In this document: one piece after another, positions 5,330-61,775 of the stretch
Position numbering within the stretch: position 1 is the stretch's first letter
Layout: each line of letters opens with the position of its first letter
From: Candidatus Poribacteria bacterium
GTDB taxonomy: Bacteria > Poribacteria > WGA-4E > WGA-3G
NCBI GenBank assembly: GCA_022394755.1
Contig: JAGFCA010000015.1
Coordinates: 44,693 to 108,692 of the forward strand
Direction of reading: 5' to 3'
Length of the DNA stretch: 64,000 nt
Notes under the pieces: model-generated
Database searches by the model: none
What the model was told of the DNA's origin: nothing
Seen by the model: the letters and a program-made list of their open reading frames with translations, nothing else
Translations under genes and position numbers: made by a program

Positions 5330-6199
5330 CTATTCTCCACTTCGTCCACCGATAGAACTCAGAACGAACCAACCCACACCTGCTGCTACAGTAGTGACAA
5401 ATGCAAGCGTACGTTTTGTTGAAGAGGGTTCTTCATGGATACCCTTGGCATTTTTAAGGTATATATTCAGTTCTTTAAGAGCTTCTTGATTCATTTCAAT
5501 CTGTTTCAACAAATTCTCATTGTTTTGTTCAATAGATGCAATTTTTCCTTTAATCGCTTCAATTGCAGAATTCTTTTCAGTAATCAACTTCTCTAAACCA
5601 TTGACATTACGATTAACTTGGTTAAGTTTCTTTTGTAATGCTTCTTGTGTAGTAGCAAGTTCTATTCTTACAATAGAAGTCAATGCTTCGGATGAAACCT
5701 TTTCTGCTTCTTTCAGTTGCATATCTTTGGATTTTAATTCCTTTTCAAGGGCTGCAACCTTAGATTGAATTTTCTTGAGATCTTCCATAAGCTTTTTTAG
5801 TTCTTTCTCAGCATTCTCAAGTAACTCTTTAGTCGCTTTGGCTTCTTCATTTGAAGCTGCCAACTCATCATTAAGATTTCTGCCTTCATCATTCAAATCT
5901 TCACCCATATCCTTAGCCAGAGATACAGGTATTCGTAATCTCTCACCTGGATAAATAAGATCTGGATTAGAGAAGTCATTATACTTTTTCAATTCCGGCC
6001 ATTTTGTAGGATCTTTCAAATATTCTTGACATAGATCCCACAATGTATCACCTTTCTTAATAGTGATTAACGTAGTTTCTTCTTCTGTCTCCTTAGGAGT
6101 AATCCTTGCGGAGGCAGATAGGACATAAACACCAGTAAGAGCAACACAGATATAGAGAACCAGTGTCAATTTTAGAGTGTTTTTAATAAAAGTCATCAT
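5330..6199 (-). CDS. LysM peptidoglycan-binding protein with long coiled coil and C-terminal TM helix
   Basis: Signal peptide; LysM ITIKKGDTLWDL...NPDLIYPGERLRIP; heptad-rich middle; hydrophobic C-terminus TLAFVTTVAAGVGWFVL. Confidence 0.9.
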   Translation of the reverse strand: MMTFIKNTLKLTLVLYICVALTGVYVLSASARITPKETEEETTLITIKKGDTLWDLCQEYLKDPTKWPELKKYNDFSNPDLIYPGERLRIPVSLAKDMGEDLNDEGRNLNDELAASNEEAKATKELLENAEKELKKLMEDLKKIQSKVAALEKELKSKDMQLKEAEKVSSEALTSIVRIELATTQEALQKKLNQVNRNVNGLEKLITEKNSAIEAIKGKIASIEQNNENLLKQIEMNQEALKELNIYLKNAKGIHEEPSSTKRTLAFVTTVAAGVGWFVLSSIGGRSGE

Positions 6200-6216
6200 A
6201 ATTCTCCCTATTGGCG

Positions 6217-7230
6217 TTAAAATTCATAGGAGACGGAAACATAATGCGTACTTCCAGCTCCATTGATTTCACTTGCCATACCGTCTTGTATAGCGTAGTC
6301 AACCTGCAGTCCAGCAATATTAACCCCAAATCCACCATAAAGTGTTTGTACATCACGTGATGCTTTCATTCCAGCACGTAAAGCAAAATTGGTTGATCTG
6401 TTAGTGAAAAGGTTATATTCAACACCACCACGGAGGCTGGTTGCACTTTCATCAAGATTAACGAATTCCTGTTCTATATCAGCGGCAAATGTAACAACAT
6501 TCCCCATATATAGATCATAAGCCACACCTACATTCACTACCATTGGCACAGTTGCTTCACCGATAGATGCCCCAAGGTATTTAGCAACAAGACCGTAATG
6601 GAATGTTGGAACCATAGATTCATGATGATTATTATGAATCGCTTGTCCCATCATATCATCAGCGACCTCAATTTCAAATGCATGACCCATAATACCAATA
6701 TCCACACCACCTAAACCACTTTGGTTTTCAACACTATCAACACCAAAATTATCAGATAACATACGACCCGTTAGACCGATATTGAAGTGTCCAATAGCTA
6801 TACCATATGAGAGTGAATATGCATTTGAACTATAGTCTGCTGTTCCACCATAAGTAGCTGATGAATCGTATACATTATAATTAGCAACTCCGTAATTAGT
6901 TGCTGCTAATCCAACTGATCCGTATGAACCCAGCGTTTTTGTAATAGCTATAAAATTATGACTTCTATCAAGTGAAAGTCTTTGAGTAGAAAAATTCAGG
7001 CTTAGATCAGCCGCAGAACCGAGTCCGGCGGGATTCCAGACAGTCGCTGTGGCATCTTCTGCTATTGCTGTAAATGCGCCACCTAAACCGATAGAACGTG
7101 CACCGGCACCGAGGCGTAAGTGAGGCATAGCGTTAACCTCTCCCTCAGCAAAACAGACAGGCGATATAGCCATGATAAGTAATAATACGGGTATAACACC
7201 GTATAGCAATTTTTGCTTTGTAGTAGACAT
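6217..7230 (-). CDS. PorV/PorQ (UPF0164/FadL-like) outer-membrane beta-barrel
   Basis: Signature LRLGAGARSIGLGGAFTAIAEDATATVWNPAGL; C-terminal beta-signal HYVSVSYEF. Confidence 0.88.
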   Translation of the reverse strand: MSTTKQKLLYGVIPVLLLIMAISPVCFAEGEVNAMPHLRLGAGARSIGLGGAFTAIAEDATATVWNPAGLGSAADLSLNFSTQRLSLDRSHNFIAITKTLGSYGSVGLAATNYGVANYNVYDSSATYGGTADYSSNAYSLSYGIAIGHFNIGLTGRMLSDNFGVDSVENQSGLGGVDIGIMGHAFEIEVADDMMGQAIHNNHHESMVPTFHYGLVAKYLGASIGEATVPMVVNVGVAYDLYMGNVVTFAADIEQEFVNLDESATSLRGGVEYNLFTNRSTNFALRAGMKASRDVQTLYGGFGVNIAGLQVDYAIQDGMASEINGAGSTHYVSVSYEF

Positions 7231-7246
7231 TAATTAATATCCTCCT

Positions 7247-7300
7247 TGGTAGCCGTTATCGAAAGTCGGACATAGAGTCCAACTTTCGATTTACGGACCA
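7247..7300 (-). other. Long intercistronic stem-loop without U-tract
   Basis: ATCGAAAGTCGGAC-ataga-GTCCAACTTTCGAT (7258..7290), extendable by CCGT/ACGG and TGGT/ACCA. Confidence 0.7.
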
Positions 7301-7308
7301 TCATTTAC

Positions 7309-10300
7309 TTAGCGCGTCAGTGCGAGCTTTAGTATGGCGAATTCAGGCTCAATACCATCATTCACTTCTATTTGACAGAAATAGATACCACGAGCCAAGT
7401 CTTCACCACCGCTGGATTTACCATCCCAACCGATAGCGTTAGAACCAGCACCGGCAGGATTCTTAGTATAGTTTCCAGCTTCCATTACTTCATTATCCAC
7501 AAGGACTCTGACTGGACGTAATGTAGAATCAAATATTGTGATACTAACATTTGCCCTTCGTGCTAACACAAGAGAGATCCGAGTGTCTTTACTGAATGGA
7601 TTTGGATAGTTGAAGGGTGCTGCCCACATAATTGGTACATCTCCACGCTCGACAAAGAAACTAAACTCATATACAGCAGTGTTTGGTTCTCGAGCACCTT
7701 TAGTTTTTTCTGAGACATTACCTTGTTGATGTGCGTTATCAGACACTTCTAACTTGACTACATATTTCCCAGGTTCTAAGTCAGCAGGTGGTGTATAATT
7801 CACCTGTGATGCGGACTTCTGCTTAGATGTTAGGTTAATCAATTGATCATTGAAGACAAACCTAATAGAATCAACATTGATTCCTGTTCCAGCATCAGAA
7901 TAGGCTATCGAAATATTAGGTTTACGTTCTTCATCATGTTTATATGTCAAACGAGAACCATTCTGTGGCGATGCCATTGTGATGATAGGAGCAGCGGTAT
8001 CAAAGGAAACAGTAAAACTACCTTTAGCAGTAGAGGAATTACCGTATCCATCAGTTGCTCGAACACTAATCGTGTATGTTCCTTCTTCAAGAGGAGCTTC
8101 AGGATTAAAGTCTAAGCGTGTAATACCTTCATTGGCTCTATCTTCACTGTCGTCAGAAGACTCGCCTTTTACCTCTTCACCACTACTATCCATTACAGTA
8201 ATGGATATTTCTTCTACACCTGTGTCATCAGTAGCACTCGCCGATATAGTCGGGAGTCCAGCATGAACTGTACCAGCAGGTGTAATGTGTGAAATGGTTG
8301 GCGGAGCTTGATCTACTTCAACAGTGAAAGTCCATCTAAATTCTTTAGAACCACCTTCACTCTCAACAATCAATGTTATTGAATGTGTACCTGCTGAGAA
8401 ACTATGTGTAACTTCAAACTTATTACCTGCATGGTCTACAGGATAAGAATGAGTTGGTGCAGTATCATCAATTAGGTATTTTACACTCAATAGATCTGAC
8501 TCAGGATCAGAGATATCAGCGGAGATTGTTACTCCCATATCTTCTGCAGCAACGTCTGCTTTATTCAAGCGAACGACTCCAGTTGGAGAATTTGCTGAGA
8601 TTACAGGAGGAGTATTATCTTTAGTCACTGAGAAAACGACCGTAGCCTCTGCTGTCTTCTTATTTGCATCAGTTACTTCAACAACAACAGTGTGTTCGCC
8701 TACACCTAATGTTGGATCAGGTGTATAGGTAAGTTGGTTATCTTCCACTTCACCATCGGCATCTTCACCATTTATTGTAAATGTAGTAACATCAACATCT
8801 GTTGAACCCATGAATTTTGCCCTAATCACTGGAGCACCATGATCATAGATTTGACCAGAAGCAGGTGAAAGGATTGAAACAGACGGTCCGGGAATATCAA
8901 CTGTAAAGACAGTTGTAGCCTGAGCAGTCTTGCCATTAGCATCAGTTACTTCAACTGAAATTGTATGGTCACCATGTGCTAATGCTTCAGCAAGGTCATG
9001 TGTAAATTGATTTCCATCTACCTTGACTTCTGCATCTTCACCATTAATAGAGAGTTTAACTTCTACTGGTACAACACCAGTGAATTCTCCAGCGACTACA
9101 GGTGAACCATTATTATAGGTAAGTCCAGCTGCAGGCGATTGAATTGAAACGGTAGGTTCAGGTAATCTAACCGTAAACACTGTAGTTGCTTTGTCAGTTT
9201 TCCCATTAGGATCAACAACATTGGCAACGATAGTGTAATCACCATCACCAATACCATCAGCAGGTGTATATGTAAATTCATTACCATCTACCACTACTTC
9301 AATTTCTACATCGTTAACAGTTACTGTTAATTCTACAGGATCAACACCTGTAAATTCACCGCGTAGAACCGGTTTTCCATGATCAAATAATTGACCTGAA
9401 GCAGGTGAATGTATTGCGACAGTAGGACCAGGAATCACAACAGAGAATACTACTGTAGCATCATCTGTCTTACCGTTAGCATCTGTAATTGTAGCAACCA
9501 ATGTATATTCACCATCACCTAATGCTGGATCAGGTGTATAACTCATTGAGCCTTCTGCTACCTCAACTGCTTCTCCATTAATCGTTAGAGCAAGGGAGAC
9601 TGGTTCGGCAACACCAGAGTAATCTAACAAGACTTCTGGAGATCCATGATCATACTCTTGTCCTGCAGCAGGTGATATAATAGCAATAGATGGTCCAGGA
9701 ATATCAACTGTGAAAGTTATAGATGACTGTGAAGTTAAACCACTTCCATCAGTAACCTCAACATCAACAGTATACTCTCCATCACCTAACGCATTAGCAG
9801 GTGTATATGAGAAGTTATTCCCATCAACTACTGCTTCCATATCTTCACCGTTGATAGTGAACTTAGAGATATTTACATCTCCACCACCGGCAAAGAAACC
9901 AGTTACTCTTGTAGGACTATGATCAAAGGATTGACCTGCAGCGGGGGCAGTAATAACAACCGTTGGATCTAAGCCTTCAACAGCAAATGAGGTAGAAGCT
10001 TCACCAATATTACCTAAACTATCTGAAACCTTAACTGTAAACTTATAAGCACCACCAGCAAGTTTATCTGTGCGTGTGTAAACGACAGAATCAATATCTT
10101 GCTCAACCATTGCTTGGTCAATAGTGATGGAAATCTCTTCTTGAGATTCATCACTTGGTCGAATTCTTGCTAAGCTTACAGATGTTGTATTCTCAGAACT
10201 TACACCAACCCCCAATTCACCATCATTGTAACCTGCTTGTAGGGTTGGCAAGTCATTGACTGTTGACCCTTCAGTTGGTGTTACAAAATCAATCATTGGA

Positions 10301-13300
10301 CCGGTGTTATCAAGGTTAATCATTGCTAATGGGAATGCCACTGAACCGTTACGCTTAGTGACTTCACCATGAGGTGTATACCATCCATCATTTACGTTAC
10401 CGAGTTCATCTGCCATCAATGAGAACGAATTGTCGGCATCGCTTCCTACTGTATACATAACTCGATGTCCATCAATAAGAACACCTGTCAGGTCAGCAAC
10501 CATCAACGAACCATTATTCACGTTGAAACTAACTGAGATAGAATCACGGAGTGGAATCGTTTCTGGAAGTTCGCCATCAACAAGTTCGCCATCAACTGAT
10601 GTAACAGTTAGATCAGTAATATCACTGACTCGGAAGTTAAGTACATGGACAGTAATGGAAGGAGAACTACCATCATCTTGGACATTTCCAAATTCATCTA
10701 TAGTCAATGCATGGTACTGATATGAACCATTTGCCAACTGACCAACATCAACAGAAACAGTACCGTCTTCCAGACTACCGTCTGCTTCAGTTGTAGTTCC
10801 ATCGGCATCAGTTTGAACGACTCTGATACTACCACCTTCATAGGTAATAGGATCAGCAGTTGGTTCAACAGTGAATATAGCAACTGGAGTATCAACAGTA
10901 GGATCAACAATACCACCCACAGTGTAGCTGCCATCTTCATTGGCTTCAATTGAGCCAGCGGAATCTGCGACATCTGTAATGTTTGTTGGTCCAAGTGGTG
11001 GTACATCATCCACATTGTCTAATGAGAAATGGGCATCCACACCATCGCGTTGATGGTATTCGGGATGTGCCAAATTCTTCGGTGTAAGTGAAATTGCTCT
11101 TACCTGATATTGATTATCATCCAAAGAGGCATCGCGTTCTGCTGCGTCCCCTCTTTCAATAGTATCATCTAATGTGATGGTATCTTCTGGTCTATCTTCA
11201 CCTAAACGTGCCAATACACGTGTATCCACTGTAACGGACCATTTATGGAAAGATCCAGGAATTGCGAATTCACCTTCACCATCATTAACAGTGTTATGTC
11301 CTGTTATCTGGACTAAACCAGTAACAATACCAGCTAAATCTGATCCATCAATTTCCTTAGGTGGTTCATCTGTTCCAGGAATACGTTCCCAAGTTTCATC
11401 ACCGGGTCGTTTCACTTCAAAGCGAACACCTTCAGTTGGTGGTGAGGTAAGTCCATAAGTATATGCGTTGAATGTTAGTTCATACTTTGGAGCACCACTA
11501 TCAGCATTGGTCATTCCATCAGAATTATCAACTGTGATAGCTAATACACCAGGATCAGGTCTGTAAGAGTTTTGTACACTAACAGTAATTTCATCATCAT
11601 CATAATCGTCAGCCTGGATATTCCCATATGTGAGGAACATATCATCAGCTGCAGTAACATCGTCATACGCTGCGGCTTTATCATAAGCTAAAGCGTGTAC
11701 AGTAAATGTATAGACTTCGTCATCTGTTGGATTATAAACAAGATCATCTGGATCTTGTAGATATCTGTCATTGTAGACTAATTCATCTGCATCCATTAGA
11801 GTTCCGATATCAATAGTTACAGTGAATTCGCCACTACCATCGGCAGTTTCTGTCACCTCACCTAAAATAGCATCTTCTGGGAGAGATGAAAGCAACTTTA
11901 CGCCTGCATAGGTCGTACGAACAGCTTCAGGTGTAAGTGTGAGTGTAATGACTGGAGAATTTACGTTTTCATCATACTTGTCGGTAAGACCACCAACTGT
12001 GTATGTCCCATCTCCATTATCTGCAAAGATACTATCTATTGCATCTACACTTGATACAATAACATTGGTAGGTCCTAAAGGTGCAACATCATCATCGTTG
12101 TCGACAGAGAATGTATCTGTATACATTTCACCTGCAACAGCTTCAGAAATATCACTGCCATCGTCACCAACAGCATAGGCACGTACCATATACTTATTGT
12201 CATCAAGAGAAGCATCACGTGCAGCTGGACTATCCTTAGTAATTGTATCTTCTAAGGCAGTTGTATCAACAGCAACTGTCCATCTAAGATAACTACCTGA
12301 GTCCTGTATATGTAGCATGTTATCGGTATACACATCTGCTAATGAACTTCCATTGAACATCACGGCTGCTGTATCTGTTCCGCTCAATTCCATGCCGGTA
12401 CCTTCAACGGTTCCGATCATTGTCCATGCTTCATCGTTTACGCGTTTAGCTTCAATTCGAATAGAACTTGTTGCTGGTACTGAACGTCTTGGTGTATAAC
12501 CTATGAGGTTAATTGTACCTTGCGGTCCACCACTATCTTGATTTGTCATCACGATAGAAGCGTCATCAACATCAACGATCAATACTTCTGGATCAACAGG
12601 ATGAATATCAGCATCAAGATGAATCTTGAACATCTCTGATGTATGTGTAAACTTTAGTCCATTGGTAGTTACAGTTTGAATAGCGACATAATCACCAGCA
12701 GCAACTAAGTCCTGAAAATCTGTTACTTCCCAATCAACGGCAAGAGTATCACCAGATGTGTGAGTAGCCTCTGCCAATTCAAGTGTATCAATTGTGATCC
12801 AATCTCCATCGGCATTCTGATACTGAACCATTATTTCGCCCGGATGGATAGTCCGTTCATTGAGTGTAACTGTAAGTGTGATCATATCAGTATTACTGTA
12901 TAGATACCCATTTTCATAGGAGTCATCTTTACCGTTATTGTTGATATCACCTAAACTTGCAGCTGTTACACTTGACGTATCAATCTCAGGTCCAACAATT
13001 CTTAGTCTTGTTGGTGGTACCTGTGATCCAACGTTAAAGACAGTATCAATACCCATTGCACGGATACCATAATCACCGGTTAGGAGCGGTATACCTTCAC
13101 CTTGAATGGGCATACCCATATTACGTGTTGGATCGAATGCTAAAGGAATTAAATTGAAGTCTTGGATTACAGCACCAAACAAGTTGGAAATTAAGCTGAT
13201 TTGTTCAGAACTGAGTTTAATCCCTAAATTATCTAAGAATGGTTGTACCAATCCAGAAATATCTGAATTTAGTATTCCTAATAGTGCATTAACATCTAAT

Positions 13301-15420
13301 GCAGCCAATGTCTGGATCTGTGGATCAGTTTGGCCTTCTAACTCAGCTCGGATTAAATCCCATACATCTGATGCTAACATAGAATTCTCAACCGTCAATG
13401 GCAACCAAGTGCCAACCGGATTTCCATCAGCATCCAAATCAATTAATTGATAAATGAGATATCCTTGTCCTTGTCCAATACCAACTGCACTACTTGCTTG
13501 TATATTTAGGACAGAAGATTGTGTTGGATCATGAGCAGTAGCAACAAAAACACCTTCCTTATTCCAATAACCTGCTGTGTTTGAATCAGCGGGTCCAATA
13601 GCAATATTTGCTGATGGGGCAGTAGTGTCTACATTTATGTTTGCAGCAATATGATCAACTGCTTCGCCATTTGCATTATATACAACAGCTTCAATCTTAG
13701 ATGCACCGGCAACTGAATCCTCAATTGAACCGATATCTCCATACCATAGTGAATCATGCTGAATATCAACTTGTGGTACACTGAAAACTGATGCTAAGAG
13801 AGGATCAAAGTTGCTCTCAAAAGTCGTAAACAAATCATTGGCATTTCGTAGTATCAACTTTTGTAAGGTATTAATATCGCTGCCTTTAATTTTAAATTCA
13901 GAGGCTGGACTTGCCAATTGTGGTAGGACTATTCTTGCAACTTCTGCAGCGACATCAGGTGTAATCAATGACTCAAGAATACCACGATCATCAAACTGTA
14001 AGTTTTTCGGATCAGGCATTGCCCAACTACTAATTTCATATACATTCGTAGCATCAAGACTGTGTGTACCTTCTGGTGAATTAAGAGCAGCAAAAACTGC
14101 CTCAGGATTAACCACTTCAAGCATAACAGGTTCAGCCAAAGTTACTTCAAAGAAATAGTAAGTATTCCCTTTTGGAAGGATACCTATCTTACTTTCCCAA
14201 ACTACACCGTTTTCACCATGTACAGGATCCATATCAACGGCGATGTAATCTCCATCTAAACCAGTCTGTGAATACCGAAGTACAACACCTGAGAAGAGTT
14301 GATTACCTAAAGCTGGCCATGCAGGTAGGTTAGTAGCTGCAAGTGATTCATCTAAACTGAATACATAAGGAATGGTATCAGCTTGAAATTCTTCTGGTGT
14401 TATTCTTTGTCCTTCACCAACAATATAGTCATCAATCCGAAATTCAACACGTCCCTCTTCAAGTGTAGATGGGACACGTACATATAGATTCAAACTATCA
14501 GATGTAAGATACTTCTGGTTGTATGGATCTGATTGGTTGAAAATAGCACTAAGAAGCGAAGGTGTAATTCCATTTCCAAAGTTTTCATAGTCCAACTGTG
14601 GTTCATCAACCTGGAAAATAGAAGTTGGCCGATGTGCAGTGAGTACTTGTTTAATTTGCTTCTTTGGAAGGAATCCTTTTGGTACTTGTGCAAGAATAAC
14701 GTCAACGACATCATCTACATATCCATCAGCCAAATCCGGTGATAATCCAGCAGCTGCAATCATATCTCTGATGAATGCTCTTCCGTGCACTCTATTCAGA
14801 GAAAGTCCGCCGAGTCTGGACTGACCGTTTAGATTTGATGTAGCTAATTCAACTGGATCCCCCATAACCTTTGTAGGAGGTTCTGGTTCCAATGGAGGTG
14901 TTGTTGGTTCCGTTGGAGGTTCTGTAGGCTCCGTTGGTGGAGTCGTTGGTTCCGTTGGTTCCGTTGGTTCCGTTGGCTCCGTTGGTTCCGTTGGTTCCGT
15001 TGGAGTCTGGCCTGCATTAAGCAATGCTTCAAGAGCTTCTATCGCAGGAACATCAAGAAGCAATTTTTGTACAAGAGGATCTCCGAGCAATGCCTTGACA
15101 TCATCATCTTCTTTAATAAGTGTTATAAATTGCTGATCGACACCCTGAGTTGCTAATAAATCTGGATTCTGGATACCTAATGCAATCAATTGAGGGTTTA
15201 AAAGCGCTTGAGTCTCAGGTTTCTTCAACGTACTAAGAACTAATGGTAAGAGTGCTTTTATATCCTCACGGCTAAGCGTCTCACTATATTTATCAAACAC
15301 TTGCTGCGCTAATTCTTGACCAGAAACTTCTTCCTGCGCCAACACAGTGCTTGGGGTTATACTGTGAAAAACACACAATGTAAAAATCAAAAACGAAACA
15401 AAAAGTGTTCGTTTTTTCAT
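7309..15420 (-). CDS. Giant acidic secreted surface protein with tandem Ig-like repeats and T9SS/FlgD-Ig-like C-terminal domain (S-layer/adhesin candidate)
   Basis: Signal peptide and RBS gaggagga; PTE linker; ~88-aa repeats starting GPxVxIxSPAxGQxYDHG; C-terminus NYPNPF...WDGKSSGGEDLARGIYFCQI...KLALTR. Confidence 0.88.
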   Translation of the reverse strand: MKKRTLFVSFLIFTLCVFHSITPSTVLAQEEVSGQELAQQVFDKYSETLSREDIKALLPLVLSTLKKPETQALLNPQLIALGIQNPDLLATQGVDQQFITLIKEDDDVKALLGDPLVQKLLLDVPAIEALEALLNAGQTPTEPTEPTEPTEPTEPTEPTTPPTEPTEPPTEPTTPPLEPEPPTKVMGDPVELATSNLNGQSRLGGLSLNRVHGRAFIRDMIAAAGLSPDLADGYVDDVVDVILAQVPKGFLPKKQIKQVLTAHRPTSIFQVDEPQLDYENFGNGITPSLLSAIFNQSDPYNQKYLTSDSLNLYVRVPSTLEEGRVEFRIDDYIVGEGQRITPEEFQADTIPYVFSLDESLAATNLPAWPALGNQLFSGVVLRYSQTGLDGDYIAVDMDPVHGENGVVWESKIGILPKGNTYYFFEVTLAEPVMLEVVNPEAVFAALNSPEGTHSLDATNVYEISSWAMPDPKNLQFDDRGILESLITPDVAAEVARIVLPQLASPASEFKIKGSDINTLQKLILRNANDLFTTFESNFDPLLASVFSVPQVDIQHDSLWYGDIGSIEDSVAGASKIEAVVYNANGEAVDHIAANINVDTTAPSANIAIGPADSNTAGYWNKEGVFVATAHDPTQSSVLNIQASSAVGIGQGQGYLIYQLIDLDADGNPVGTWLPLTVENSMLASDVWDLIRAELEGQTDPQIQTLAALDVNALLGILNSDISGLVQPFLDNLGIKLSSEQISLISNLFGAVIQDFNLIPLAFDPTRNMGMPIQGEGIPLLTGDYGIRAMGIDTVFNVGSQVPPTRLRIVGPEIDTSSVTAASLGDINNNGKDDSYENGYLYSNTDMITLTVTLNERTIHPGEIMVQYQNADGDWITIDTLELAEATHTSGDTLAVDWEVTDFQDLVAAGDYVAIQTVTTNGLKFTHTSEMFKIHLDADIHPVDPEVLIVDVDDASIVMTNQDSGGPQGTINLIGYTPRRSVPATSSIRIEAKRVNDEAWTMIGTVEGTGMELSGTDTAAVMFNGSSLADVYTDNMLHIQDSGSYLRWTVAVDTTALEDTITKDSPAARDASLDDNKYMVRAYAVGDDGSDISEAVAGEMYTDTFSVDNDDDVAPLGPTNVIVSSVDAIDSIFADNGDGTYTVGGLTDKYDENVNSPVITLTLTPEAVRTTYAGVKLLSSLPEDAILGEVTETADGSGEFTVTIDIGTLMDADELVYNDRYLQDPDDLVYNPTDDEVYTFTVHALAYDKAAAYDDVTAADDMFLTYGNIQADDYDDDEITVSVQNSYRPDPGVLAITVDNSDGMTNADSGAPKYELTFNAYTYGLTSPPTEGVRFEVKRPGDETWERIPGTDEPPKEIDGSDLAGIVTGLVQITGHNTVNDGEGEFAIPGSFHKWSVTVDTRVLARLGEDRPEDTITLDDTIERGDAAERDASLDDNQYQVRAISLTPKNLAHPEYHQRDGVDAHFSLDNVDDVPPLGPTNITDVADSAGSIEANEDGSYTVGGIVDPTVDTPVAIFTVEPTADPITYEGGSIRVVQTDADGTTTEADGSLEDGTVSVDVGQLANGSYQYHALTIDEFGNVQDDGSSPSITVHVLNFRVSDITDLTVTSVDGELVDGELPETIPLRDSISVSFNVNNGSLMVADLTGVLIDGHRVMYTVGSDADNSFSLMADELGNVNDGWYTPHGEVTKRNGSVAFPLAMINLDNTGPMIDFVTPTEGSTVNDLPTLQAGYNDGELGVGVSSENTTSVSLARIRPSDESQEEISITIDQAMVEQDIDSVVYTRTDKLAGGAYKFTVKVSDSLGNIGEASTSFAVEGLDPTVVITAPAAGQSFDHSPTRVTGFFAGGGDVNISKFTINGEDMEAVVDGNNFSYTPANALGDGEYTVDVEVTDGSGLTSQSSITFTVDIPGPSIAIISPAAGQEYDHGSPEVLLDYSGVAEPVSLALTINGEAVEVAEGSMSYTPDPALGDGEYTLVATITDANGKTDDATVVFSVVIPGPTVAIHSPASGQLFDHGKPVLRGEFTGVDPVELTVTVNDVEIEVVVDGNEFTYTPADGIGDGDYTIVANVVDPNGKTDKATTVFTVRLPEPTVSIQSPAAGLTYNNGSPVVAGEFTGVVPVEVKLSINGEDAEVKVDGNQFTHDLAEALAHGDHTISVEVTDANGKTAQATTVFTVDIPGPSVSILSPASGQIYDHGAPVIRAKFMGSTDVDVTTFTINGEDADGEVEDNQLTYTPDPTLGVGEHTVVVEVTDANKKTAEATVVFSVTKDNTPPVISANSPTGVVRLNKADVAAEDMGVTISADISDPESDLLSVKYLIDDTAPTHSYPVDHAGNKFEVTHSFSAGTHSITLIVESEGGSKEFRWTFTVEVDQAPPTISHITPAGTVHAGLPTISASATDDTGVEEISITVMDSSGEEVKGESSDDSEDRANEGITRLDFNPEAPLEEGTYTISVRATDGYGNSSTAKGSFTVSFDTAAPIITMASPQNGSRLTYKHDEERKPNISIAYSDAGTGINVDSIRFVFNDQLINLTSKQKSASQVNYTPPADLEPGKYVVKLEVSDNAHQQGNVSEKTKGAREPNTAVYEFSFFVERGDVPIMWAAPFNYPNPFSKDTRISLVLARRANVSITIFDSTLRPVRVLVDNEVMEAGNYTKNPAGAGSNAIGWDGKSSGGEDLARGIYFCQIEVNDGIEPEFAILKLALTR
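14880..15003 (-). repeat. 9-bp tandem repeat encoding the Pro-Thr-Glu linker
   Basis: (ccgttggtt)n on the plus strand; PTEPTEPTEPTE... Confidence 0.9.
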
Positions 15421-15880
15421 TAACTTTTCCTCCTCGTTAAGTCACGCTAAAACGAGACTAAATACTGAAGTTTTAAATGGGCGATAAACACGACATAAAC
15501 GACCGGAGGTAGGTGTTTGCCCATCCATTAACATCCTACTACCAAGTATTAAAATTCTTTTTCCTACTACGTAAGTCAACCTAAAGATAGTCTTAACATA
15601 TCTTGTATACATGTCAAAAGCAGCAATTTTTGGCACCGAATATTGTAGCACTCCACTGGGAATACATATTAATAGTTTATCTAACAGGGTCGGTTGATTA
15701 CGTAAATGTAATATTTTATTGACTGAAAATGAGTCCATAATAAAGGAACATCAGTTATTTTAACAAAAGTCAAAATAATACGCAAGTTTTAATTGGGAAA
15801 TACCGCTTAATTCTTTAAAAAATACCAAATTTCCCAACCTATCAATTTATATCAACGATTAAATCATAGTAATAGGTAAC

Positions 15881-15909
15881 ATATTACCATAAATTAAAAT
15901 ATAAGTCAA
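15881..15909 (-). promoter_or_regulatory. Candidate sigma70 promoter for the giant surface-protein operon
   Basis: TTGACT-17 bp-TAATAT with TG extension, about 460 nt upstream of the ATG. Confidence 0.45.
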
Positions 15910-51303: not shown

Positions 51304-51601
51304 TATTTCCTCCAAAATAAGACTATCATGCTTGGATAGCATATGGTTTAGTTGTGCAATAGCAATATAATGAGAAGGACTATGTAATGTTGTCTAATCT
51401 TGTGCCTTCTATTATATTCTGGTTTATTATTTATAGAGTGTTAACTAAATAATGGTACATGGATTCGCAAAATCAAATTTGTCAATGATCCAAATCAATC
51501 AAAGTATAACACATGAAAAAAAATCAAACTTTTTCTTGAATATTTTAGACAGATAGTATTATCCTCATTAGTAACATAATCATTTGCTATACAGGAATAC
51601 A

Positions 51602-52060
51602 ATGTACTGTCCAAGATGTCAAGCAACTCAATACATCAAATATGGTTTGGTTAATAACAGGCAATGCTATAAATGTAAGAACTGTCAATACCAATGGACA
51701 CGCACAACACCCCGGGGACATCCACCCGAACACAAGAAACTCACTGTCTTGTTATATTGCCACGGGCTTTCAATGAACGCTATTTCAAAACTTTTTCAAG
51801 TCTCTACAACTGCTGTGCTGAAATGGATTAGAAACTTTGCGAAAAAGCAGGCACCGAAACCGATGCTTTCATCCGGCACGCCTGTTGTTTTGGAACTTGA
51901 TGAGATGTGGCATTATATCAAAAACAAGAAAAATAAGCTTTGGATATGGAAAGCACTTGATAGAAACACCGGACACCTCATTGACTGGGAATGTGGTGGA
52001 CGCAACAAAGAAACACTTGAGAAACTCACAACACACCTTAATGAGGGAATAGTTTCGTAA
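51602..52060 (+). mobile_element. Truncated IS1-family transposase (fused InsA-InsB)
   Basis: MYCPRC...YKCKNC zinc ribbon, HTH, ELDEMWHYIKNKKNKLWIW; C-terminal half of the DDE domain is missing. Confidence 0.85.
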
Positions 52061-52200
52061 ACTCTTCTAATGTATAGCCAGTAAGGGACAGAAACGCATC
52101 AGGTCTGTCCTTGAGATCTTGATAATTGGTCATAAGTCGACCTCCTATCATAAGATAATAATCAGTATAACAGAGGTTAACAGAATTTAAAACTAAATCA
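52038..52200 (-). mobile_element. 5' remnant of an IS5-like (DDE_Tnp_4-type) transposase
   Basis: RBS aggagg and ATG 52133: MTNYQDLKDRPDAFLSLTGYTLEEF, resembling the N-terminus of that family; stops after 31 codons. Confidence 0.55.
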
Positions 52201-52207
52201 TTATAAT

Positions 52208-53667
52208 CAATACCTTCGCCAAAAACACTTGAATAAAAAGGGTATTTGTCTTAATGTTTTAAAGTTTACCCTAACTTTATAAAGAGACAAACACCCATGC
52301 CAGAAATTATAGCACTGTTTACTATACTTAATCCATGTTTATCTACGACTTCAATCCTTCATTTATGTCAAGTAGTATTTGCACTTCTTGCAATGACAGG
52401 TCGAGTCACAATGCTAAATATTTCCCGTTGGACTTCAAAAGGAGGGAGTTATCGTACCATACAACGCTTCTATAACACAGTTCTACCATGGTCTATGATG
52501 TGTTGGTTGTTTTTCAAAAACTATCTGTTTGACCCTGAAAGTGACTATCTCCTTGTCGCAGACGAAGTCGTCGTGTCAAAATCGGGACAAGAGACATATG
52601 GTTTAGATCGATATTTTTCTTCATTGTATGGAAAAGCGATTCCTGGATTGTCATTTTTAGCGGTGTCCTTAGTGAGTGTAAAAGATAGGCGTTCTTACCC
52701 GATGCTGATGGAGCAAATCGTGCGTAGCAACAAATCAACCAATCCAGATGTATCTGCAACCGAACAGTCTGATAATAAACTGACAGCCAAAACAAAACGA
52801 GGGCGCGGTCGTCCTAAAGGGAGTCGGAACCGAAACAAAAAGGATGTTACGCTCAGTGATACTTTGAAACAACTTCAAACAATGGTCAAAACAGTGATGC
52901 GACAGATAAACAATCATATCAAACCTGGATATTTTGTGCTTGATGGGTATTTCGGACACAATAATGCACAACAAATGGTAAGTCAATGTGATCTACAACT
53001 GATTTCAAAACTACGCTCAGATGCAGCACTCTATTATCCGCCATCAACACCCTATAATGGTCGTGGACGACCCGCCATCTACGGAGATCGTTTCAATTCA
53101 CAACAAAGTGATAAAAAATGGTGTGTCTCTGTTGAAACAACCGATAGTGTCAAGGCCGAAGTATATCAAGTACAGTTACGACATAAGCAGTTTGCAGACA
53201 CTCTCAATGTTGTTTGTATTCTCAAAACGAATAGGGTGACACAACAAAAATCACACGTTTTATTATTTAGTTCTGACTTAGAACTGAGTGCTGAAAAGAT
53301 GATTGATTATTACTCCCTTCGTTTTCAAATAGAGTTTAATTTTAGAGACGCAAAACAATATTGGGGATTGGAAGATTTTATGAATGTGAATAAAACACCT
53401 GTAAACAATGCATCGAACTTATCCTTGTTTATGGTAAATGTAAGTGCTAAGTTATCAGACACATTTCAATCTAAGAAAACGGAGAGTAGCGTATTAGATT
53501 TGAAGGCACACTTCCGAGGTTTGAAATATTTAGATGAAACATTAAAAATACTTCCGCAAAAACCTGAACCTATTGTTATTGAGCAAATCACGCAGCACCT
53601 TGGTTCTATTGGGGCTATTCATCACACGCAACCAGAACTAAATCCAGGATAATTGGCGAAGGTATTG
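52208..53667 (+). mobile_element. Complete IS4-like insertion sequence (1460 bp)
   Basis: Perfect 15-bp TIRs CAATACCTTCGCCAA / TTGGCGAAGGTATTG; 7-bp TSD TTATAAT (52201..52207 and 53668..53674). Confidence 0.92.
52297..53652 (+). CDS. DDE transposase, IS4-like
   Basis: LVADE, VLDGYF, and YREK motif YSLRFQIEFNFRDAK. Confidence 0.92.
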   Translation: MPEIIALFTILNPCLSTTSILHLCQVVFALLAMTGRVTMLNISRWTSKGGSYRTIQRFYNTVLPWSMMCWLFFKNYLFDPESDYLLVADEVVVSKSGQETYGLDRYFSSLYGKAIPGLSFLAVSLVSVKDRRSYPMLMEQIVRSNKSTNPDVSATEQSDNKLTAKTKRGRGRPKGSRNRNKKDVTLSDTLKQLQTMVKTVMRQINNHIKPGYFVLDGYFGHNNAQQMVSQCDLQLISKLRSDAALYYPPSTPYNGRGRPAIYGDRFNSQQSDKKWCVSVETTDSVKAEVYQVQLRHKQFADTLNVVCILKTNRVTQQKSHVLLFSSDLELSAEKMIDYYSLRFQIEFNFRDAKQYWGLEDFMNVNKTPVNNASNLSLFMVNVSAKLSDTFQSKKTESSVLDLKAHFRGLKYLDETLKILPQKPEPIVIEQITQHLGSIGAIHHTQPELNPG

Positions 53668-53693: not shown

Positions 53694-55625
53694 TCATATC
53701 CAACTATATACAGCGGAACGTAATATCAAACTCAATAAGGGCCAAAAACAACCCATCAACGCTTCACCCAATACCAATCCAATGAAAAATGGAATAGCTC
53801 TACGATAAGCGTTTATACCTCCATTCCGTAATATAATCCACTTCGTTACCATAGCAATCAAGAGTGGAAACCAAATAACATCTGTTGTACCCGGAGCGAC
53901 TCCAATCACATATCCTGCTGGATGCAACGGACACCACACAAAACGAGACCGTAAAAACATTATTCCCAAATTGGCAAAGAACGCAATTCCAAGAACACTA
54001 CTCGCTAACCAATCCATCGGTTTCGGATTGACTAACCATGATGAAAGAAAATTATATGTATCTGCACCACCTGCATGGATCTGTTCAGATCCCGCAGCAA
54101 CCCCCTCACTATATATCGCATACGGATAAAGTATCAGACTTGATAATATACCAACAAGGCTGGCTATCACCAGAACTATAAACATAGTTCTGTTACGTAT
54201 GTTTGTCCTTTCTGCAAGTTTAAACGCCTCAAGTTGATCCGGCATTGGATGTGTACGGAATGAAGCATAACTTGCACCACTCAACCAATTCATCAAAGAT
54301 AGCATTGTCAAATTACCTGCACGCAATCGTCTTGTTCCAAGAAGCGAAATCATCATGTATTGCGGTGTTAAATAACCAATTGCATGTATCGGAGGACCCA
54401 GTTCCGCACGCATACGTGTTAAACCGACTACAATCAACAAATATATCCCAATAAATACAACAAATGCCCACAACGACATCCCGCCTCTTACACAGAATAT
54501 AGCAAGTAATAATAACGATAACGCTAAGACTATCAGAGTTGTGCGATGCGATAATGCTTCATTCTGATTTTCTAACGGTTTCGGTCGAATCGCTTGGGAT
54601 ATTACCAATTTAAAATGCTTTCTACCGTTCCAACAGGCAATCGCAAGTAATGCAAGTAATGCACCTGCCCCCTGTTCGCCTAAAAATGGGTATCCCTGCA
54701 CCTTAGATACCCCAGAAGCACTACCAAAAAGCAATTGCACCTTCTTCATGATATAGAAGAATGTACAAGAAAATGCTAAATCAAGCGGTAAAATAAATGA
54801 GAAGCCAATTAAATAAGGATGAACTCGTAACGGTGTACTTCCAATTGCACTCCACGGTTTCTGAGTAAAGTACATGTTGAGATCGTATTTTCTGACAGGA
54901 ATTTCTGGTAATATAGGATAGAAATATTGCAATCCATTAAGCAGATTGATCCCTGCAGCTATACCGAAACCTATCCATAATAACTTACTTCTAAATATAC
55001 CTCGGTTCGTGGTGATTTCTAAGGGTATCTGTATAATTGGATAAGCAAGTTTCTCATTCTCTATCCACTGCTTCCTTATCAAAGATGTCAAACATAAGAA
55101 AATTAACATCAGTAAGAATATTACCGCTGACCAAGAAAGAATGGGAACAATCCAATAACTAAAGTATCCACCTGTGAAGAAATTTACATTTCCTTCGTAA
55201 AAATCATTGACTGTTTTTGGATCTTTTACGACAAGCCATTCAGGTAAATGATGAAATAATAATGCCTCCCAATCATTCTCTGGTGTAGCAAAACGATAAG
55301 CATAAGGTATCAATCCCATCAATCGAGGCATACAGTCATGCCCTGAAAAAGCACTACCCACTGCCAGCATACTATAAACTACAATTAGATCACGTTGTGT
55401 CAGTGAAACCTGAGGAGAAATCTTCCGTAACCAGAGATTAATCACTGTTATCATAAATATACCAAACATCACATTAACAGACATAGCAACTGTCGTTAAA
55501 TGGGCTGTATGCCATATCATCTCTACATAAGCAATCCAATAACTATTAGCGATAATAAGGAGTGTACCAATCAATACTGCCCTTTTGGTAATAGGGCTTG
55601 TTGATTGTAAGTGTGTTTGGTTCAT
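53694..55625 (-). CDS. Large polytopic membrane protein (DUF6785/DUF6784, OPT-like)
   Basis: RKQWIENEKLAYPI, RMRAELGPP, WCPLHPAGY, RNGGINAYR..PFFIGLVLGE. Confidence 0.75.
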   Translation of the reverse strand: MNQTHLQSTSPITKRAVLIGTLLIIANSYWIAYVEMIWHTAHLTTVAMSVNVMFGIFMITVINLWLRKISPQVSLTQRDLIVVYSMLAVGSAFSGHDCMPRLMGLIPYAYRFATPENDWEALLFHHLPEWLVVKDPKTVNDFYEGNVNFFTGGYFSYWIVPILSWSAVIFLLMLIFLCLTSLIRKQWIENEKLAYPIIQIPLEITTNRGIFRSKLLWIGFGIAAGINLLNGLQYFYPILPEIPVRKYDLNMYFTQKPWSAIGSTPLRVHPYLIGFSFILPLDLAFSCTFFYIMKKVQLLFGSASGVSKVQGYPFLGEQGAGALLALLAIACWNGRKHFKLVISQAIRPKPLENQNEALSHRTTLIVLALSLLLLAIFCVRGGMSLWAFVVFIGIYLLIVVGLTRMRAELGPPIHAIGYLTPQYMMISLLGTRRLRAGNLTMLSLMNWLSGASYASFRTHPMPDQLEAFKLAERTNIRNRTMFIVLVIASLVGILSSLILYPYAIYSEGVAAGSEQIHAGGADTYNFLSSWLVNPKPMDWLASSVLGIAFFANLGIMFLRSRFVWCPLHPAGYVIGVAPGTTDVIWFPLLIAMVTKWIILRNGGINAYRRAIPFFIGLVLGEALMGCFWPLLSLILRSAVYSWI

Positions 55626-58195: not shown

Positions 58196-59638
58196 TTATT
58201 TATCTTTATCTACTGACTTCGATTTTATATCCGATAATAACCCATCTTTCTCAATAATTGCCATCTCCGTCATCTTCACAAGAACACTTTCAGGATGAAC
58301 AGCATACCACTTTCCGTCTACAAAGGTTATAATTGCGTATTCTCTTTCATTTTTATCAAGAGTTTCAGAAAAGTAATCAGCAGGCAACCAGTTTTCATAA
58401 GTGATAGGTTCATCATTGTCCCATTTCCATTTATCACTGTTTTTGGCAGAACTTAACCCTATCCAGTAAAATGTATGGCCAAATACCGCTCCTAACCACT
58501 CCTGCTCCTTGGGATCGTTAATTGTTACAAGATATGCATTTTCATCACTGGCTTGAGCAATAGCCTCTTCTCGAGTTCTACAGAATATCCTTTTATATGC
58601 ATGGCCATTCGCTGGATTTACTATCCATACCTCATTTGACGTTGGAAGTGGAGGCTTTTCTGGAGTAGAAGATGGTTGAATTTCATCCGTTTTCTTTTTC
58701 ATCTTCGGAGGTAGTGGTTTAGGAGGAATTGGTTCACTATCAAAAGTAAATGTCAAACCATCAATCTGTTGGTCAGGTTCAAGATGTATCTGTTGAGGAG
58801 GTGTAACTAATCCCTGATACTCTAATGACATTGTGTAAATTGCAGTCTTATCCATATTACGGAGATATTGTACAAAATTACCTTTGTCATCAATCCAAAC
58901 GCCAGTTCCTCCTCCTCCGCTCCCACTACCACTATTACCTTTATGATCATCATAACGGAATTTAAGGGAAATCCGAATACGTGTATTTGAGAGTGGTGTA
59001 CCATCTTTAAAGATAACACGACCACGTATCCGCATGCGAGGTTTAACAATTACCTCAACGTTCTTGATATGTATATCAGGATCAATACCAAAAACAATTT
59101 CATCAAAAAAATCACTCCGCGGATAAAAATTTATATCATTTATACGTAGTGATACAACTTTAGCATCAGGTTCAAAATCGTTCTCATGAAAACCAAAATT
59201 AGTACGAGTAAAACCAGAAATATAGTTTGGATTGAATCCTTTGTCATCCCATGTCAAATAATCTTTAAGAAAATCATCATAATTATCTGGTAGACGTTTG
59301 TCAATATTTTCAGATAAGATCCCAAAATAATGTGGTCCTTGTGTAATGCCTGTTATAGAAAAACTTCCATCTGCTTTTGTCTGAGTCCGATTTAATGCAA
59401 AATAGCCATAAGGAAGATTGGGCCGAATTGTTATTCCTTTATGAATTATAAGTGGTGCGATAAAAACGGGTAATTCAGCCATGGGATTACCTTCTGTATC
59501 AATAACCCGACCCGATACAGCCCCCGAACCTTCCTGACAAATACCATGTACTGTGAATATACTGAAAAGTGTCTGTATTGTTAGCAGCATTACAATTGTC
59601 TTTTTTCTAAAATACTTTCTTATCATTATTTTCTCCAT
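58196..59638 (-). CDS. Secreted protein with two carboxypeptidase-regulatory-like domains and a C-type lectin domain
   Basis: Signal peptide; SGRVIDTEGNP and RGRVIFKDGTPL; NGHAYK...YLVTIND.KEQEWL...YWIGLS...WKWDN..PITYENW. Confidence 0.85.
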   Translation of the reverse strand: MEKIMIRKYFRKKTIVMLLTIQTLFSIFTVHGICQEGSGAVSGRVIDTEGNPMAELPVFIAPLIIHKGITIRPNLPYGYFALNRTQTKADGSFSITGITQGPHYFGILSENIDKRLPDNYDDFLKDYLTWDDKGFNPNYISGFTRTNFGFHENDFEPDAKVVSLRINDINFYPRSDFFDEIVFGIDPDIHIKNVEVIVKPRMRIRGRVIFKDGTPLSNTRIRISLKFRYDDHKGNSGSGSGGGGTGVWIDDKGNFVQYLRNMDKTAIYTMSLEYQGLVTPPQQIHLEPDQQIDGLTFTFDSEPIPPKPLPPKMKKKTDEIQPSSTPEKPPLPTSNEVWIVNPANGHAYKRIFCRTREEAIAQASDENAYLVTINDPKEQEWLGAVFGHTFYWIGLSSAKNSDKWKWDNDEPITYENWLPADYFSETLDKNEREYAIITFVDGKWYAVHPESVLVKMTEMAIIEKDGLLSDIKSKSVDKDK

Positions 59639-59670
59639 ATTAACAATGCGTCCATTTTCTAATGTAGAAA

Positions 59671-61713: not shown

Positions 61714-61746
61714 GTGTCTTCTCCAAATGTCTGTTTCATAATACAA

Positions 61747-61775
61747 AGACACCTAATTACAATGCAAAGGTTGCA
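61747..61775 (-). promoter_or_regulatory. Candidate ECF-sigma (auto)promoter
   Basis: TGCAACC-tttgcattgtaattag-GTGTCT; AAC/GTC-type ECF elements about 35 nt upstream of the ATG. Confidence 0.5.

Follow-up and report, generated by a model that had tools for sequence, protein, structure and literature searches.

A three-gene locus in Candidatus Poribacteria

The locus described here lies in a 64,000-nt stretch of DNA from a Candidatus Poribacteria bacterium, a sponge symbiont (assembly GCA_022394755.1, contig JAGFCA010000015.1), hereafter called the window, and comprises three genes on the minus strand (Table 1). The first encodes a giant protein (P0001) that ends in a type IX secretion system (T9SS) C-terminal domain (CTD), the second a predicted PorV-like outer-membrane barrel (P0002), and the third a LysM protein (P0003). 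An initial annotation, made from the letters without database searches, had described three closely spaced, co-directional genes with a closing terminator in a host outside Bacteroidota. Their products were given as an acidic 2703-aa protein rich in immunoglobulin (Ig)-like domains and ending in YPNPF...WDG...GIY...KL, a PorV/UPF0164-like barrel, and a LysM-coiled-coil-transmembrane protein. This layout is reproduced by the coordinates of the open reading frames (ORFs), which give gaps of 78 nt between the giant and barrel genes and 17 nt between the barrel and LysM genes. The closing terminator corresponds to a hairpin with a T-run located 56 nt 3' of the stop codon of the LysM gene. It is the strongest terminator-like site of the region and none lies in either intergenic gap, while such sites are not enriched as a class (8 versus 5.6 ± 2.5 in shuffles).

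The window is part of a 139.6-kb contig in a 5.19-Mb Poribacteria metagenome-assembled genome (MAG; G000), which is 93.8% complete. Ribosomal-protein, lipid A and haem genes are encoded on the same stretch of the contig, which makes contamination unlikely. The placement of the host outside Bacteroidota also holds: in the NCBI lineage, Poribacteria stand under 'Bacteria candidate phyla', outside Bacteroidota and the Fibrobacteres-Chlorobi-Bacteroidetes (FCB) group.

The order of the three genes is kept throughout the phylum. Eighty close loci were retrieved with the barrel protein, and all titles that name an organism say Candidatus Poribacteria. The LysM gene follows directly downstream of the barrel in 80/80 of these loci, with gaps of about 13-25 nt in most, and a CTD-bearing giant gene lies upstream of the barrel in 78/80; the two exceptions (L048 and L067) are contigs that start inside the barrel gene. 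Moreover, the order giant, barrel, LysM is found in 9/9 divergent genomes from other Poribacteria families and classes, in one of which the LysM gene was located by genome search and not by ORF picking. The giant CTD proteins of these nine genomes are 1955-4383 aa long where complete. A P0003 homologue is present at E<=2e-12 in 96 of 101 sampled Poribacteria genomes, which cover 8 families and 17 genera, 97 of them at least 90% complete and many single-contig. The remaining five have weak P0003 matches, and one of these (G009) is the syntenic orthologue. The genes flanking the unit are not conserved.

Among the close loci, the barrel is the most conserved of the three proteins, with 65-92% identity, compared with 54-96% for the CTD (78 orthologues), 45-56% for the LysM protein and 37-87% for the body of the giant. 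The lower identity of the body indicates divergence of this exposed part, with the tail and the barrel kept constant. In one MAG titled 'uncultured bacterium' (L264, 2-9216), an extra 298-aa ORF of unassigned family lies between the giant gene and the barrel; the giant of this locus has 2112 aa and matches P0001 at E=1.5e-261.

Table 1. Features of the locus, with positions in the window
Feature	Positions	Strand	Basis
Giant gene (P0001)	7309..15420	-	ORF, 2703 aa
Barrel gene (P0002)	6217..7230	-	ORF, 337 aa
LysM gene (P0003)	5330..6199	-	ORF, 289 aa
CTD, T9SS type A sorting domain (P0001 residues 2591-2703)	7312..7650	-	TIGR04183
Ig-like repeat region (P0001 residues ~1768-2590)	7651..10119	-	Pfam
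Pro/Thr/Glu-rich (TEPTEP...) low-complexity linker (P0001 residues ~139-183)	14872..15006	-	read from translation
LysM domain (P0003 residues 45-91)	5927..6067	-	PF01476, 44.6 bits versus cut-off 20.9
Conserved C-terminal hydrophobic segment (P0003 residues 264-285)	5345..5410	-	KR-LAFVTTVAAGVGWFVLSSIGG-RSGE; hydropathy and alignment of 17 orthologues
Terminator-like hairpin and T-run at the end of the unit	5274-5250	-	11 pairs, 6 G-C, then TTTTCTGTT
Conserved 5' leader of the giant gene	15421..15570	-	53 loci matched by blastn; 16 sequences aligned and folded
Promoter-like site upstream of the leader	15881..15909	-	TTGACT-17-TAATAT with TG; consensus match alone

The giant cargo protein and its C-terminal domain

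P0001 is acidic, with an isoelectric point of 4.09, 15.6% Asp plus Glu and 5.3% Lys plus Arg. Its N-terminus resembles a Sec-type signal peptide, as judged by eye from the translation. The Ig-like matches of Pfam all fall within the repeat region before the CTD and include five stretches of Big_13 (160.9 bits), Big_7, Glucodextran_B, Big_9, and others. Residues 1-1700 gave no Pfam match, and about 1500 aa lie between the low-complexity linker and the Ig-like repeats. No relative of P0001 was found among PDB sequences at E<=0.001, and an Atlas search with residues 190-1700 returned Ig-like leads only, with a score of 0.83, under the level that counts.

The translation ends in ...FNYPNPFSKDTRISL...AIGWDGKSSGGEDLARGIYFCQIEVNDGIEPEFAILKLALTR and contains the YPNPF, WDG, GIY, and KL motifs. 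The CTD matches the T9SS type A model TIGR04183 with 27.7 bits, above the curated cut-off of 23, as the ending noted in the initial annotation had suggested, and it scores 20.1 bits with Pfam PF18962, below the cut-off of 27. The C-terminal part of the PorU model NF033707 gives 60.9 bits and thus exceeds the TIGR04183 score. No type B match (TIGR04131, CHU_C) was found in Pfam or NCBIfam at E<=0.01. The best PDB sequence match of the CTD is the CTD of PorU (6za2_A), which is weak at E=0.014. The domain ends 2-3 residues before the stop codon, and its alignment has 30 invariant columns, with the Lys of the terminal LKLALTR invariant in 79/79 sequences. Passages of PMC10994853 and PMC11285876 describe a conserved and functionally important lysine in the last strand of type A CTDs.

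The PorV-like barrel

P0002 is a predicted 14-stranded outer-membrane barrel assigned to the PorV/PorQ family, PorV-like by sequence and by predicted fold. It scores 72.9 bits with the NCBIfam PorV/PorQ model NF033709 over model positions 3-326 of 326, and its NCBIfam matches are all PorV, PorQ, or PorV2. The sole significant PDB sequence match of a profile of 24 barrel orthologues is PorV of Flavobacterium johnsoniae (6h3i_F, E=3.1e-11), and the conserved N-terminal motif of P0002 aligns with PorV. An AlphaFold2 model built on a 123-row alignment has 14 strands, a predicted local distance difference test (pLDDT) value of 89.5 and a predicted template-modelling score (pTM) of 0.85; it superseded an earlier model from 79 close orthologues, which was unusable (pLDDT 59.7). 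The best Foldseek matches of the model are PorV structures, 8gl6_F (E=1.8e-12, template-modelling (TM) score 0.72) and 6h3i_F (E=3.1e-11, TM 0.69), followed by FadL with TM 0.54-0.58. The PorV-like part of the first description of this gene therefore stands, and its UPF0164 part finds no confirmation in Pfam.

The LysM protein

The LysM domain of P0003 is kept in all aligned orthologues. A hydropathy scan located two hydrophobic segments at residues 8-33 and 264-285; the N-terminal one finishes with a conserved ASA-(R/K)-ITP, and the C-terminal consensus reads KR-x-LAF(V/L)TT-AAG-GWF...GGRSGE. The long region of the protein has coiled-coil-type matches alone, and the coiled-coil sequence is poorly conserved. 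The LysM domain and the coiled coil named in the initial annotation are thus present, and its transmembrane part corresponds to a C-terminal hydrophobic helix. The NCBIfam matches (YneA-like, LysM, SafA-like, and amidase-activator-like) are all made through the LysM domain alone. Neither the OmpA_C-like domain nor the TPR/propeller scaffold of PorE-like anchors was found in P0003 with Pfam and NCBIfam. The protein may have a cleaved signal peptide and a C-terminal inner-membrane anchor, or its C-terminal segment may touch the barrel. A role of P0003 as a peptidoglycan tether is proposed.

T9SS-like machinery elsewhere in the genome

The initial annotation had pictured a self-contained unit for a putative S-layer-like protein in a lineage not known for a canonical T9SS. 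The claim of self-containment fails, since an SprA-like translocon and PorU-like proteins are encoded elsewhere in the genome, and the claim on the canonical T9SS holds. The SprA/Sov-like protein of the genome has 2164 aa and matches in co-linear segments (148.9 bits, E=1.1e-43). An SprA-like gene is present in 101/101 Poribacteria genomes, with none above the cut-off per segment, and its neighbours in the present genome are unrelated metabolic genes with no motor candidate. Three putative PorU-like proteins of 1725-2175 aa, each CTD-bearing, score 420.4, 392, and 364 bits, and one of them reaches the PorU cut-off (420.4 versus 420). Hidden Markov models (HMMs) iterated on the genome identified 57 CTD-bearing ORFs, in which the CTD is always at the extreme C-terminus, and 15 PorV-like barrels.

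In contrast to these outer-membrane components, GldL, GldM, and GldN had no match in the genome, whereas 3/3 Bacteroidota control genomes were above the cut-off. GldM was found in 0/101 Poribacteria genomes, although very divergent motors could escape such searches. For GldK, the genome gave only partial matches of the FGE-sulfatase (sulfatase-maturase) type, the best with 109 bits against a cut-off of 350. The PorP/SprF family also had no match, while 2/3 controls were positive. The presence of SprA-like, PorU-like, and barrel proteins together with the failure to find GldK, GldL, GldM, and GldN amounts to an outer-membrane kit that is T9SS-like but has neither the known motor nor the known ring. 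Because the SprA-like gene occurs in every sampled genome and the PorU-like proteins are encoded elsewhere, export of the giant most likely depends on shared machinery.

NCBIfam already has models named 'PorV2' and 'PorU2', and paralogous sorting systems have thus been noticed by its curators. As a separate observation, contigs C30 (18469-41629), C116, C118, and C185 of the genome carry tandem paralogous proteins of ~830-900 aa that end in a bulk-type CTD. The array on C30 has about ten in a row, and this contig also carries the SprA-like gene.

Pairing of barrels with CTD cargo

Five of the 15 barrels of the genome lie directly beside a same-strand CTD gene. The partners are P0001, a 3073-aa Ig-rich protein (C214), a PorU-like protein (C200), a 999-aa protein (C19), and a 465-aa protein (C59). 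All five partner CTDs are among 13 divergent CTDs (E 1e-9 to 1e-20, one 3.5e-4, against the bulk CTD profile). An adjacent barrel is present for 5/13 divergent CTD genes versus 0/44 bulk CTD genes (E<=6e-26). The barrel that follows the PorU-like gene reaching the PorU cut-off is another one than P0002. In Bacteroidota, porU and porV are adjacent, and this other barrel is hence the more natural candidate for the general PorV. Gene order therefore favours the giant and P0002 as a cognate pair.

The 3073-aa protein (G000:C214:7572-17804, L114) contains Big_13, Big_5, and Big_3_2 domains and a divergent CTD. The barrel 30 nt after its gene is a PorV/PorQ-family member with 117 bits, above the cut-off. 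A further observation concerns a 792-aa SppA protein (G000:C59:94043-96424, L116; 324 bits), residues ~28-266 of which match the PorV-like barrel HMM; it lies two genes away from a pair of barrel and CTD protein.

Ordinary type A processing would explain the locus differently. P0002 would then be one general PorV shuttle, and its adjacency to the giant gene would reflect co-regulation of envelope genes; the giant would go to a PorU-like sortase, lose its CTD, and be linked to lipopolysaccharide or released. Such processing is consistent with a CTD that passes the type A model, with the presence of three PorU-like proteins, of which one reaches the PorU cut-off, and with PorV as a general carrier in Flavobacterium, as stated in passages of PMC10994853. 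On the other hand, the genome has 15 paralogous barrels, and the P0002 orthologue is strictly syntenic with the giant across the phylum. The restriction of adjacent barrels to divergent CTDs and the different barrel behind the best PorU candidate also argue against a general shuttle. Moreover, the CTD scores more than twice as high on the C-terminus of the PorU model as on the generic CTD model, and PorU is a protein that retains its CTD. On balance, ordinary type A processing of the giant is considered unlikely.

Wall-binding partners of barrels in Poribacteria and other phyla

A search with the barrel profile returned 23,895 cluster representatives at E<=0.001, with a step in the scores between about a dozen orthologue-level matches (438-268 bits) and the rest at 211 bits and below. 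Among 35 long-form homologues, 11 have a C-terminal OmpA domain and 11 have TPR repeats; of the 10 long forms for which P0002 is the best match in the present genome, 8 are OmpA fusions. In a FastTree phylogeny of 107 rows, all 11 OmpA fusions fall into one clade (Shimodaira-Hasegawa (SH)-like support 98), which is sister to the P0002 clade (support 88); 0/12 of the other paralogues of this genome in the tree fall there.

With an alignment of the fused forms, 80 loci from other lineages were retrieved. The named lineages include Eisenbacteria, Zixibacteria, Ignavibacteria, Cloacimonadota, Elusimicrobiota, Gemmatimonadota, Calditrichota, Marinimicrobia, Bacteroidota, and others. Across these loci, 44 of 75 barrel ORFs adjoin a CTD gene. 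The CTD neighbour is upstream on the same strand for 36 of them and downstream for 10, with 2 barrels having both. Ten upstream neighbours are longer than 2000 aa, and several are truncated where the flank ends. The bodies of these cargo proteins are unrelated to the Poribacteria giant and the CTD alone matches, except in L264.

In a Cloacimonetes MAG (L260, 24-11822), the gene for a CTD protein longer than 2900 aa precedes that of a PorV-like barrel. Third comes a 642-aa PorE-like protein with TPR, PD40, CarboxypepD_reg, and OmpA domains, which is the PorE architecture. Judged from its domains, this locus of another phylum is a putative counterpart, with a type A-like CTD, of the way PorP and PorE are arranged. 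The other-phyla loci contain two further barrels with a fused OmpA domain and one with SH3_3. The OmpA-fused sister barrels and the PorE-like neighbour in Cloacimonetes lend independent support to the suggestion, made in the initial annotation, that the LysM protein links the unit to the wall.

A second link between a barrel and peptidoglycan occurs in the Poribacteria genome itself. A 550-aa protein (G000:C123:26309-28673, L122) joins a PorV-like barrel and a lytic transglycosylase domain in one chain, and the ORF directly before it (272 aa) has a LysM domain.

The LysM protein might also stand outside the display unit, as an inner-membrane-anchored, periplasm-spanning peptidoglycan binder with a general envelope function (spacing, division, or control of wall hydrolases) that shares the operon by chance. 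This would fit the NCBIfam matches made through the LysM domain alone, the poorly conserved coiled-coil sequence, the C214 pair of giant and barrel that has no LysM gene, and the mostly unrelated downstream neighbours in other phyla. Chance sharing is difficult to reconcile with the adjacency of barrel and LysM gene in all close loci and all nine divergent genomes, with its short gaps, and with homologues in 96/101 Poribacteria genomes. In addition, wall-binding OmpA domains are fused to the barrels of the sister clade, and the transglycosylase-fused barrel of the same genome is preceded by a LysM ORF. A LysM protein that is independent of the unit is accordingly judged quite improbable.

That the barrel is a FadL-type channel for hydrophobic substrates, unrelated to secretion, is highly improbable: FadL, TodX, and TbuX are next-best folds (TM 0.50-0.58) and TodX gives a weak sequence match to the profile (E=0.56), but PorV is clearly best by sequence and fold, the NCBIfam matches point to the PorV/PorQ group alone, and the barrel adjoins CTD cargo here as do most of the barrels in other lineages.

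The 5' leader, transcripts and neighbouring genes

The giant gene is preceded by a conserved leader, the last ~136 nt of which show 73-83% identity between Poribacteria genera. A 10-bp stem in it (GGATGGGCA...TGCCCATC) is invariant, two compensatory pairs occur in a small hairpin, and a GGAGG Shine-Dalgarno sequence is also present. A comparison of the leader with Rfam gave no family. The leader, taken as 15421-15813 on the minus strand, may be cis-regulatory. Promoter-like sites such as the one upstream of it are not enriched (43 versus 40 ± 6.9 expected from shuffles).

RNA data came from four runs of two studies, with 5-6% of sampled words, and the contigs derive from related strains. The 5' region of the giant gene is present in metatranscriptomes in the form of these contigs. 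They span 15335-15813, where the word depth is the highest of the stretch. The matching pieces are 33-50 nt at 90-95% identity on the giant gene and contigs of ~450 nt on the leader. The contigs of relatives give no expression level, and the uncovered parts are uninformative.

The surrounding ORFs do not form a conserved part of the unit. A 98-aa ORF upstream (15442-15738) had a tblastn match in 11/80 loci, and the downstream ORFs, including one of 134 aa, were found in 0-9/80 loci. Further away in the window, positions 58196-61752 (-) encode a 693-aa protein with regions 2 and 4 of a sigma-70 factor of the extracytoplasmic function (ECF) type and a C-terminal C-type lectin domain. The next protein, of 480 aa, has CarboxypepD_reg as well as C-type lectin domains, and the pairing of sigma factor and lectin is unusual. 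An IS1-like fragment and a DDE_5 transposase lie at 51584-53652, beside a DUF6785/DUF6784 membrane protein at 53694-55625.

Proposed function as a surface-display cassette

We consider it reasonably probable that the unit is a cargo-specific surface-display cassette, composed of a carrier or anchor and a tether, of a motor-less T9SS-like pathway in Poribacteria. In the proposed mechanism, the acidic Ig-rich protein would pass the inner membrane via Sec, and its type A-like CTD would bring it to the shared SprA-like outer-membrane translocon encoded elsewhere. The adjacent PorV-family barrel would act as its own carrier, bind the CTD, and leave the translocon together with the giant. The barrel most likely stays as the outer-membrane anchor of the giant, whose CTD would be retained uncleaved. 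This step is modelled on PorP/SprF-like barrels with type B cargo and on PorV and PorQ with PorU and PorZ. The CTDs of PorU and PorZ are retained, and the two proteins reside on PorV and PorQ.

The LysM protein would complete the cassette. Its LysM domain is predicted to rest on peptidoglycan, its coiled coil of ~150 residues would cross the periplasm, and its C-terminal hydrophobic helix would hold the protein in place, a topology that we infer from the segments described above. By contact with the barrel, P0003 would fix the complex of barrel and cargo to the wall, comparable to PorE for PorP and to the fused OmpA_C domain in the sister barrel clade. An energy source for passage through the pore is presumed.

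Several results weigh against the cassette. The P0002 score lies under the curated NF033709 cut-off of 90, and the protein has no Pfam match at E<=0.01, including PorV, UPF0164, and PorP_SprF. The SprA-like protein is also under its cut-off (148.9 versus 200). Passages of PMC10994853 state that substrate release from the SprA translocon requires the GldLM motor, and the energy step is left unexplained because this motor was not found. The RNA contigs of relatives match the giant gene and its leader only, not the barrel or LysM genes, and co-transcription is thus unsupported. The C214 pair lacks a LysM gene, as noted. In other phyla, 31/75 barrels are without an adjacent CTD gene (by our own HMM), and a PorE-like wall binder was found in only 1/24 downstream neighbours scanned; the rest comprise three TPR proteins, two weak coiled-coil proteins, and others that are unrelated, mostly housekeeping. 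Finally, the FastTree phylogeny is a quick one with SH-like support alone, its rows were picked by score to the P0002 profile, and some branches are long.

A more tentative and somewhat doubtful generalization is that a motor-less relative of the T9SS, working by 'one cargo, one barrel, one tether', occurs in Poribacteria and, judged from the matching gene pairs, in Elusimicrobiota, Cloacimonadota, Zixibacteria, Ignavibacteria, and others, and is older and more widespread than the Bacteroidota gliding and secretion machine and independent of GldLM energy. If so, the PorV-type barrel of each large cargo would collect it from the SprA-like pore and remain as its permanent, wall-tethered anchor. 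The tether would be supplied by a fused OmpA domain, by a PorE-like neighbour or, for Poribacteria, by a strut of LysM domain and coiled coil, and these would amount to three interchangeable wall-binding solutions.

With an SprA-like pore, PorU-like proteins, 15 barrels, and 57 CTD proteins, but neither motor nor ring detected, the genome of this non-FCB phylum prompts one to ask how cargo with a CTD exits the pore without GldLM. Moreover, the surface protein marked by the unit is the largest of Poribacteria, diverges fast, and is universally conserved, which makes it a prime candidate for contact with the sponge host, phage, or the sponge matrix.

Comparison with known systems

According to passages of recent reviews (PMC11285876, PMC12398890), T9SS genes and CTD proteins are confined to Bacteroidota or the FCB group. 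The literature covered, which leaves out subscription journals, yielded no paper on this unit or on T9SS components of Poribacteria; passages of PMC7313196 deal with Bacteroidetes symbionts, and PMC7031533 and PMC7323717 gave nothing relevant.

The closest known analogue is the PorE-PorP complex with its type B cargo; between P0003 and PorE-like anchors, the relation is one of functional analogy and not of family membership. Passages of PMC9143113 describe a PorE-PorP-PG1035 complex in Porphyromonas gingivalis, SprF bound to SprB, and six porP-like genes that adjoin porE-like genes in F. johnsoniae, and its authors propose that non-mobile type B cargo is wall-anchored via PorP-PorE-like complexes. 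As far as these passages go, the likeness lies in a CTD cargo, its own 14-stranded barrel of the FadL family, and a periplasmic bridge, putative in Poribacteria, that binds peptidoglycan, all encoded by adjacent genes. In contrast, the Poribacteria CTD is type A-like and not type B, the barrel is of the PorV/PorQ type and not PorP/SprF, and the putative tether consists of a LysM domain, a coiled coil, and a hydrophobic helix instead of a TPR/propeller/OmpA_C lipoprotein. Furthermore, the host has no detected GldKLMN.

The SprB-SprF pair of F. johnsoniae resembles the unit in that, as excerpts of the source describe it, a giant repetitive surface protein is encoded beside a dedicated barrel for its secretion and anchorage. 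However, SprB carries a type B CTD and, as a mobile adhesin for gliding, is powered by the Gld motor, while neither a motor nor a PorP-family protein was found for the Poribacteria unit. The latter also adds a candidate wall tether, a feature that the authors link, in the passages cited, with non-mobile cargo.

PorV on SprA (6h3i, 8gl6) is the best sequence and fold match of P0002, and in the Poribacteria genome, too, a barrel follows a PorU-like gene. In passages of PMC10994853, type A CTDs are carried by PorV on SprA, and PorV is the general carrier in Flavobacterium; a PorU-PorV-PorQ-PorZ attachment complex is named in part of PMC9143113. PorV of Bacteroidota is a general shuttle, whereas Poribacteria have 15 paralogues and a strict one-to-one synteny at this locus. 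P0002 is also smaller, with 309 aa in the mature form against 367-402 aa for PorV.

The OmpA_C-fused PorV-like barrels of uncultivated phyla (P0019, P0022, P0034, and others) form the sister clade of P0002. A CTD-cargo gene lies upstream of them in L257 and L261, and wall binding would be provided within the unit, as is proposed here. The wall binder is fused to the barrel in those phyla, while in Poribacteria it would be a separate LysM protein with a long coiled coil. Compared with what has so far been shown for type B CTDs with PorP and PorE, the cassette, if correct, extends the principle of cargo, barrel, and wall tether to CTDs that are type A-like and barrels of the PorV type. A variant of the known cargo-barrel-PorE principle, kept throughout Poribacteria, is the description that suits the unit best; looser parallels of cargo and barrel occur in many uncultivated phyla.

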